From Escherichia coli (lineage in GTDB: Bacteria; Pseudomonadota; Gammaproteobacteria; Enterobacterales; Enterobacteriaceae), in assembly GCF_041248615.1 (NCBI RefSeq), contig NZ_CP158426.1: 64,000 bases of DNA. One strand, written 5' to 3'. This document shows, one piece after another, positions 18,728-20,401 of this stretch (positions are counted from its first letter, which is position 1; each line of letters opens with the position of its first letter). Below the pieces are notes generated by a model that was not told the origin of the DNA, did not search any database, and worked only from the letters and a program-made list of their open reading frames with translations. Both the position numbers and the translations under genes were made by a program.

Positions 18728-20401
18728 ATGAATATAAAGACGATTAACGTCAGCCTTTTGTCTTTTTCTATTATTACAGCATTGTTTCCGTTGAACGCGT
18801 TGGCAACAAAATTAACCATTGAGCAGCGCCTTGAACTGCTTGAAAATGAATTGTCGCAAAATAAACAAGAGCTGAGAGCAACACAGAATGAACTGGGGGT
18901 ATATAAATCCCGACTTTCGACCTTACAAAAAAGTATTACGGAAAATAAATACAAATCAGCCTCACTTGCTGAAATATCAGCGACATCTCCCGTCGCTGAT
19001 AACATCAAAAATGAAAACGGTGAACAGAACTCGTCTGCCGCAGCGCATACTATAAATGGATCGCAGCAAGTTGCCGTTATTGAAAGTAAAGGCGACAAAA
19101 CCACTATCGAAAGCGTGACCCTGAAAGATATCAGTAAATATATAAAGGATGATATTGGGTTCAGCTATCAGGGGTACTTCCGCTCAGGCTGGGGTACCGG
19201 AAATCATGGCTCACCACAAACATATGCAGCGGGTTCTCTGGGACGTTTTGGTAACGAGATGAGCGGTTGGTTTGACTTAACCTTAAATCAGCGTGTTTAT
19301 AATCAGGACGGTAAAACGGCAAATGCGGTCGTTACCTATGATGGCAACGTAGGTGAGCAGTATAACGATGCCTGGTTTGGTGACAGTGCCAATGAAAATA
19401 TCATGCAGTTCAGTGATATTTATCTGACAACGCGAGGTTTTTTACCCTTCGCGCCAGAGGCAGACTTCTGGGTAGGCAAACATAAACTCCCGCAATATGA
19501 GATCCAAATGCTGGACTGGAAAACCTTAACCACGGATGTCGCTGCGGGTGTGGGGATTGAAAACTGGGCACTTGGTGTAGGGCTGTTTGATATGTCCTTA
19601 AGCCGTGATGATGTCGATGTTTACTCTCGTGATTTTACGCGTACCAGTCAGATGAATACCAATTCTGTGGATGTTCGTTATCGCAATATCCCGTTATGGG
19701 ATGATGCAACATTATCATTAATGGCTAAATATTCCGCACCAAATAAAACGGATCAACAACAAGATAATGAAAATGACGACAGTTATTTTGAAATGAAAGA
19801 TAGCTGGATGCTGACTTCTGTTTTACGGCAAAACCTGCAACGCGATACGTTTAATGAATTTACGTTACAGGTTGCCAATAATTCCTATGCCAGCAGTTTT
19901 GCCAGTTTCTCAGATGCCAGTAACACGATGGCGCATGGTCGCTATTACTATGGTGACCATACCAATGGGATCGCCTGGCGTTTAATCTCTCAGGGCGAGA
20001 TGTATCTTACTGACAATATTATTATGGCTAACGCGCTTGTCTATTCTCATGGCGAAGATGTTTATAGTTATGAAAGTGGCGCTCATAGTGATTTTGACAG
20101 TATTCGCACCGTAGTAAGACCGGCCTGGATCTGGAATACATGGAATCAGACGGGGCTTGAATTAGGCTGGTTTAAGCAACAGAACAAAACACAGCAGGGT
20201 GTAACACTAAATGAATCGGCTTATAAAACGACACTCTGGCATGCATTGAAAGTGGGTGAAAGCATTTTAGGTTCACGACCAGAAATTCGCTTCTATGGAA
20301 CGTATATCAATATTCTGGATAACGAATTATCGAATTTTAAGTTTAATGAGAACAGCAAAGACGAGTTTATGGCCGGCATCCAGGCGGAAGTCTGGTGGTA
20401 A
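18728..20401 (+). CDS. LamB/ScrY-family carbohydrate-specific outer-membrane porin with N-terminal coiled-coil extension
   Basis: 557-aa ORF; signal peptide, heptad-like segment at residues ~27-75, C-terminal ...EVWW like maltoporins. Confidence 0.7.

Follow-up and report, generated by a model that had tools for sequence, protein, structure and literature searches.

A BglH-related carbohydrate porin with a predicted periplasmic coiled coil, encoded in a bgc-type operon of Escherichia coli

Among the sugar porins, work on the coiled coil of ScrY, the sucrose porin, goes back to the 1990s. Two roles have been proposed for the N-terminal extension of this protein: stabilisation of the oligomer (PMC10542722) and the routing of sugar across the periplasm, as an 'extended slide' towards the inner-membrane transporter (PMC5557850; bioRxiv 10.1101/306035). 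The function of the ScrY domain itself is unsettled in the literature (bioRxiv 10.1101/306035). All solved structures of ScrY are 413-residue chains in which the extension is missing, and our profile and extension searches of the PDB did not find a solved structure covering the extension of any sugar porin. The second described system that concerns us here is the bgc operon, which was reportedly described by Neelakanta, Sankar and Schnetz in 2009. As far as it is summarised in PMC3585215, bgc consists of five genes, of which IIB, IIA, IIC and BgcA are named, and its regulator is BgcR.

We analysed a stretch of 64,000 nucleotides of E. coli DNA (the window), in which, according to the RefSeq annotation, an accessory island lies between eamA and marB. 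The genes of the island follow each other in the order GntR regulator, IIB, IIC, IIA, porin and GH1 6-phospho-beta-glucosidase. The regulator gene (15689..16387, minus strand) is divergent and of the BgcR type, as judged by Pfam GntR and UTRA matches and RefSeq. Pfam, NCBIfam and RefSeq assign the next three genes, all on the plus strand, to the lactose/cellobiose family of PTS components: IIB at 16586-16897, IIC at 17011-18333 and IIA at 18361-18672, the last being the RefSeq CDS, in whose frame an open reading frame begins at an ATG at 18355. As far as bgc is summarised in PMC3585215, this gene set fits it, namely a divergent GntR regulator, IIB/IIC/IIA, one further gene and a phospho-beta-glucosidase gene. 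A full-text literature search for bgcH returned irrelevant matches only. The fifth bgc gene is presumably that of the porin, named bgcH (protein BgcH), and the substrate range, for which the source is likewise a secondary citation, is presumed as well. Our main reading, to which we give a probability of roughly 85%, is that the window encodes the porin of a beta-glucoside PTS operon, a paralogue of BglH that would carry a trimeric periplasmic coiled coil on tethers, with a trimer-stabilising role as the most likely one.

The porin gene, assigned to the bgcH type of carbohydrate porins from the open reading frame list, its Pfam LamB and Sugarporin_N matches and RefSeq, is an intact open reading frame of 557 aa plus a stop codon at 18728..20401 on the plus strand. 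Its product is 100% identical to RefSeq WP_001022717.1, a 'carbohydrate porin' annotated at the same coordinates. The possibility of a misplaced start was examined, and the start proved unambiguous. The ATG at 18728 is the earliest start codon downstream of the preceding in-frame stop, a Shine-Dalgarno sequence (TAAGGA, 18716..18721, plus strand) can be read 6 nt 5' of it, the following Met falls within the barrel with none earlier, and every orthologue examined is 557 aa long. In addition, residues 1-26 (18728..18805, plus strand), inspected by eye, look like a Sec signal peptide, with a basic n-region (K4), a hydrophobic core and an A-x-A site, A-L-A, which is followed by TK. The identity of this segment across eight orthologues is 46%, a low value that is expected of a leader; this and the other orthologue identities given below are means of eight proteins named in their sources as Citrobacter, Salmonella, Enterobacter or Kluyvera. 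Thus, the first-ATG position, the Shine-Dalgarno sequence, the signal peptide and the length of the orthologues together rule out a misplaced start, as far as this can be judged from sequence. An open reading frame of 129 aa with a GTG start (18715-19104 of the window, minus strand) runs antisense over the 5' end of the porin gene; RefSeq does not annotate it, and the codon pattern of the sense strand probably explains it.

The barrel places the protein firmly in its family. Residues 147-557 (19166..20398, plus strand) correspond to a LamB-type beta-barrel of 18 strands with a WW C-terminus, as indicated by PF02264, AlphaFold2 and Foldseek. The match to PF02264 (LamB) spans profile positions 1-378 with an E-value of 9e-82 and 276.5 bits, against a cut-off of 25.1. 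The AlphaFold2 model, for which a 49-sequence alignment was the input (mean pLDDT 83.3, pTM 0.72), has 18 long strands at residues 146-556, with a pLDDT mostly above 90. The best Foldseek matches of this model were maltoporin (1mpr, 1mal and 8xcj) and ScrY (1a0t and 1oh2), with target-normalised TM-scores of 0.75-0.79, and these two porins were also the only ones matched when the PDB was searched with a profile built from the alignment. The profile was required, as a single-sequence phmmer search of the PDB with the full porin returned nothing at E <= 0.01. The earlier description of the protein as a LamB-like porin is therefore well founded, given the Pfam match and a model that is closest to maltoporin and ScrY.

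Within the barrel, five of the six greasy-slide residues of LamB (Y6, Y41, W74, F227, W358 and W420) have an aromatic counterpart, namely Y150, W181, W216, F375 and W556; the remaining one, L514, is aligned to LamB W358 in a region where the alignment is uncertain. The alignment also pairs ScrY D201 (mature numbering) with LamB Y118, an equivalence known from the ScrY literature. At this constriction position the window porin has a lysine, K265 (19520-19522), and BglH also has Lys there. It may be that a lysine at this position is a specificity determinant of beta-glucoside porins.

Behind the signal peptide, heptad statistics, PF11471, AlphaFold2 and orthologue conservation define a coiled-coil helix of six heptads at residues 31-74 (18818..18949, plus strand). 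Its 12 a and d positions stand in an unbroken register (I31, L35, L38, L42, N45, L49, T52, L56, Y59, L63, L66 and I70), and Leu, Ile, Val or Met is found at 9 of these 12 core positions, compared with 3 of 30 elsewhere in the segment. When the segment was shuffled, the heptad score was matched in 8 of 20000 trials. Furthermore, residues 30-56 match PF11471 (Sugarporin_N, 'Maltoporin periplasmic N-terminal extension') with 29.2 bits, above the cut-off of 25.7, and this match is already precomputed in the database for the protein cluster of the porin and for its orthologues. AlphaFold2 models residues 31-74 as a single continuous helix, with block-mean pLDDT values of 78-89 across residues 31-70. 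The shuffles, the Pfam domain and the modelled helix thus bear out the heptad-like sequence that the first-pass annotation had noticed after the signal peptide. Its length, given there as about 50 residues, comes down to 42-44, and its location between the signal peptide and the barrel is right in so far as the run lies between them; it does not adjoin the barrel, as about 75 residues (75-146) intervene.

Conservation of this segment follows the heptads. Across the eight orthologues, the coiled coil is 64% identical, compared with 87% for the barrel, and its core positions are nearly invariant while the residues that face the solvent vary. Among the positions that are the same in all orthologues are the polar d residues N45 and T52, and trimeric coils often contain buried polar layers of this kind. 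Still, the polar d positions N45, T52 and Y59, as well as G57, may weaken the coil. A search of the PDB with the extension alone gave only generic coiled-coil matches, none of them significant. Chance heptad-like patterns do occur, and when the whole mature protein was shuffled and the best window was scored, 4 of 500 shuffles reached the score of the porin. Nevertheless, it seems to us extremely improbable that the heptads are an artefact, whether of a start codon that really lies downstream or of a stretch that is amphipathic by chance. The ATG, which comes with a Shine-Dalgarno sequence and a signal peptide, is the only start before the barrel, orthologues from records labelled Citrobacter, Salmonella, Enterobacter and Kluyvera keep both the 557 aa and the heptad core, PF11471 is matched above its cut-off, and a helix is predicted.

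A motif scan of the coil located an R-h-x-x-h-E motif at R34, L35, E36, L37, L38 and E39 (18827..18844, plus strand), in the register g-a-b-c-d-e. It sits in EQRLELLE, the most conserved stretch of the extension. PMC6173795, which cites Kammerer 2005, describes how this motif acts in coiled coils that are parallel trimers, among them the periplasmic coil of FapF. Among homologues whose pre-barrel region has at least 50 residues, 16 of 21 contain the motif, including BglH and ScrY, and it was found in none of the 28 LamB-type proteins of the 49-protein set. When the extension was shuffled, 156 of 5000 trials produced the motif by chance. We also modelled three copies of the segment joined by GS linkers in one chain, and this construct gave three helices with a pLDDT of about 90 and a pTM of 0.60. 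In a Foldseek search of the PDB, the linked model matched only single-chain three-helix bundles, and weakly (E 0.09), and neither the orientation of the helices nor the oligomer number can be read from it. We therefore infer the formation of a trimer by the extension from its motif and from its membership of a trimeric family. The motif evidence favours a role in trimerisation or stability as the minimum function of the coil. The conserved core of Sugarporin_N coincides with this general trimerisation motif.

Between the coil and the barrel, the extension changes character. Residues 75-125 (18950..19102, plus strand) are a low-complexity tether rich in Ser, Ala and Asn, delimited by pLDDT, orthologue identity and length variation. 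The AlphaFold2 pLDDT is below 50 at residues 75-120 and 122-127, and the tether is probably disordered, as far as the model goes. It is 49% identical among the orthologues (residues 73-125), varies in length across homologues and carries small conserved islands (SPvA.NI.NENgE and QQvAVI).

These properties bear on another account of the extension, in which the coil is mainly a low-affinity sugar-binding stalk that, together with the long tether, reaches through the peptidoglycan and delivers beta-glucosides to the PTS IIC component of the inner membrane. Such a role has been proposed for the homologous ScrY domain (PMC5557850; bioRxiv 10.1101/306035), the extension of about 120 residues is longer than that of ScrY (about 74), and the porin and a PTS permease share a transcript. 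Yet sugar-binding residues are not recognisable in the extension, orthologues differ at those positions of the helix that face the solvent, the tether varies in length and shows little conservation, and the ScrY proposal is itself unproven. We thus consider this account unlikely as the main explanation, and continue to regard stabilisation of the trimer as the more probable role of the coil.

The tether is followed by a conserved pre-barrel segment at residues 126-146 (19103..19165, plus strand), defined by its identity among orthologues and with BglH. It is the best conserved part of the porin, with 90% identity among the orthologues and 62% with BglH; it is common to BglH-like homologues and missing from ScrY and LamB. 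AlphaFold2 places a short helix at residues 132-136, and the block-mean pLDDT is about 47-76 over residues 121-150. Just upstream there is a further element, QQVAVI...TTIES (19064-19114, residues 113-129), which is conserved, confined to the orthologue group of the porin and modelled as a beta-hairpin of low confidence. Region-wise conservation and the model, taken together, make the extension tripartite: a coiled coil, a variable tether rich in Ser, Ala and Asn, and a conserved pre-barrel segment. The whole extension has about 120 residues, of which the tether accounts for about 50 and the pre-barrel segment for about 20.

It could be argued from the conservation of the pre-barrel segment that the extension gates the channel, with residues 126-146 plugging or narrowing its periplasmic mouth and the coil coupling the three subunits, much as FapF has a helical plug and the Vibrio chitoporin an N-plug. 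Plug-type N-termini do exist in other trimeric channels, and a homologue with a short leader and no detectable heptad run (P0134) also has the pre-barrel segment. Moreover, in work by Schülein from 1995, removing the 70-residue extension of ScrY reportedly altered the behaviour of the channel, which counts in favour of gating. However, ScrY is without the pre-barrel segment, and the pLDDT values around it correspond to no confident docking in the model, so we find gating quite doubtful. We are similarly sceptical of a more particular proposal, in which the tripartite module of the BglH/BgcH branch would differ from ScrY in using the strongly conserved, amphipathic pre-barrel segment as a tethered plug or docking element that regulates the channel or couples it to the PTS permease. 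If it were true, this module would represent a gating or hand-over mechanism undescribed for sugar porins.

With trimer stabilisation as the preferred role, the following sequence of events can be envisaged. The protein would first be exported by the Sec pathway and its signal peptide cleaved, and residues 147-557 would fold into the 18-strand barrel with its aromatic greasy slide. This barrel would pass beta-glucosides (such as cellobiose, arbutin and salicin) over the outer membrane towards the IIB/IIC/IIA permease. The mature N-terminus would remain in the periplasm, where residues ~31-74 would form an amphipathic helix of six heptads, and the three helices of the porin trimer would most probably wind around each other in parallel, as a three-stranded coiled coil with a length of about 65 Å. 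The flexible tether of about 50 residues and the conserved 20-residue pre-barrel segment would join this coil to the barrels. Its likeliest role would be that proposed for the ScrY domain, that is, the stabilisation or nucleation of the trimer, and it might in addition prolong the sugar path into the periplasm as a low-affinity element.

Expression of the porin relative to the rest of the operon could be adjusted at the RNA level. From the IIA stop codon to the porin start, RNA folding predicts a stem-loop at 18670..18709 (plus strand), within a gap of 55 nt, that has an 11-bp core stem at 18676-18703, a folding energy of -20.3 kcal/mol and a z-score of -3.1. No T-run lies behind it, and a simple terminator scan did not call it. 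This structure could modulate the expression of the porin relative to that of the PTS, or the stability of the mRNA.

Downstream of the porin gene, the operon of the window strain is broken. The 5' fragment of the bgcA-type 6-phospho-beta-glucosidase gene (20426..21088, plus strand; gene positions 1-663) matches NCBIfam and Pfam GH1 models over their first half only, and it is followed by a complete IS2 of 1331 bp (21089..22419, minus strand), recognised by a TnpB match of 697.7 bits, its terminal inverted repeats and RefSeq. The 3' fragment (22420..22848, plus strand) was identified by RefSeq and, like the 5' fragment, by mapping onto strain MS 69-1, where the gene is intact; it covers gene positions 1012-1440. 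Between the fragments, 348 bp of the gene (positions 664-1011) are deleted and there is no target-site duplication around IS2, which indicates an insertion together with an adjacent deletion. As the glucosidase gene of the operon is destroyed, the porin may be without a current role in the window strain. Thus, the operon is decaying through IS2 and a deletion while the porin gene is still intact.

Of 5426 complete E. coli genomes, 2553 have a match to the porin gene. In E. coli NRZ14408 (NZ_LT599825.1) the region that corresponds to the window is identical to it; this genome is the only one of the 5426 that matched positions 20300-23300 at 100% identity, and an IS element lies in or near the glucosidase gene in two further genomes. 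The island decays differently in other strains: the IIA gene of strain MS 69-1 has an internal stop (7634-7945 of its locus), and two strains have an IS1 within the porin gene. This suggests that the bgc-type operon is often dispensable. Some database entries of 630-749 aa (P0002, P0003, P0005 and P0047) join the porin domains to a GH1 domain. Given that the porin stop (20401) and the glucosidase start (20426) are just 24 nt apart, we suspect that these entries reflect the loss of a stop codon or artefacts of assembly or gene calling, and not real fusions.

The coiled-coil extension is therefore real and of an already known kind, and it is ordinary in that its domain is a curated Pfam family, BglH and ScrY have been characterised and the operon has been published. 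The finding matters little beyond correct annotation. The interpretation of the first-pass annotation as a ScrY-type porin extension holds, with three omissions: the kinship with BglH, the tripartite build of an extension of about 120 residues, and the prior description of both the domain and the operon. What can be added is that the BglH/BgcH branch has an extra conserved pre-barrel segment, absent from ScrY, and that R34 and E39 offer a simple mutational handle on whether the stalk merely stabilises the trimer.

Comparison with the known systems, for which the reference bglH and lamB were taken from annotated K-12 records, starts from the overall identities of the window porin, which are 54% with BglH, 23% with ScrY and 27% with LamB. 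Judged by these values, its nearest characterised relative is E. coli BglH, not ScrY. PF11471 is present in the window porin, BglH and ScrY and absent from LamB, which has PF02264 only; alignment and Pfam thus agree with the earlier claim of a ScrY-like extension that LamB lacks. Counting the signal peptide, 148 residues precede the barrel in the window porin, 128 in BglH, 98 in ScrY and 29 in LamB.

BglH, the porin of the cryptic bgl operon of K-12 (b3720), resembles the window porin in its signal peptide, PF11471 domain, tether, pre-barrel segment and LamB barrel, and the identity of 54% extends over the full length. The two proteins have in common the pre-barrel sequence TLKD(I/F)SK(Y/F)(I/V)KD(D/E)IGF, their motifs at the start of PF11471 are near-identical, and both serve beta-glucoside PTS operons. 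The operons themselves differ, as bglGFBH has an EII of the glucose family and the antiterminator BglG, whereas that of the window has IIB/IIC/IIA of the lactose/cellobiose family and a GntR regulator. The heptad score in the 28-residue window test is 0.57 for BglH versus 0.70 for the window porin, and the K-12 protein (2605-4221 of its locus) reads KKKYTPATV, with Pro where the heptads of the window porin continue, so that the coil of BglH looks shorter; its pre-barrel region is 20 residues shorter. We rejected the possibility that the window porin is BglH itself, on the grounds that the identity to b3720 is only 54% and that both the locus and the type of operon are different. From its sequence, the window porin is thus best classed as a paralogue of BglH within the LamB/ScrY family of sugar porins.

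In ScrY, which belongs to the scr regulon of pUR400-type plasmids, the PF11471 coil also lies right behind the signal peptide, and both the R-h-x-x-h-E motif and the 18-strand LamB-type barrel are found in the two proteins. ScrY differs in its shorter extension (about 74 residues instead of about 120), in having four consecutive R-h-x-x-h-E repeats, in being without the conserved pre-barrel segment and in its substrate, sucrose. LamB has in common with the window porin PF02264, an identity of 27%, the greasy-slide aromatics and a fold that the target-normalised TM-scores of 0.75-0.79 reflect; in contrast, it is without PF11471 and a periplasmic extension, and its first strand begins about two residues past the signal peptide. 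Outside PF02264 and PF11471, DcaP of Acinetobacter (a 16-strand porin-like protein) and FapF of Pseudomonas (an amyloid exporter) have barrels unrelated to that of the window porin. Nevertheless, both work in a like manner, with an N-terminal trimeric periplasmic coiled coil that a flexible linker connects to the barrel, and FapF has the same R-h-x-x-h-E motif as the window porin.
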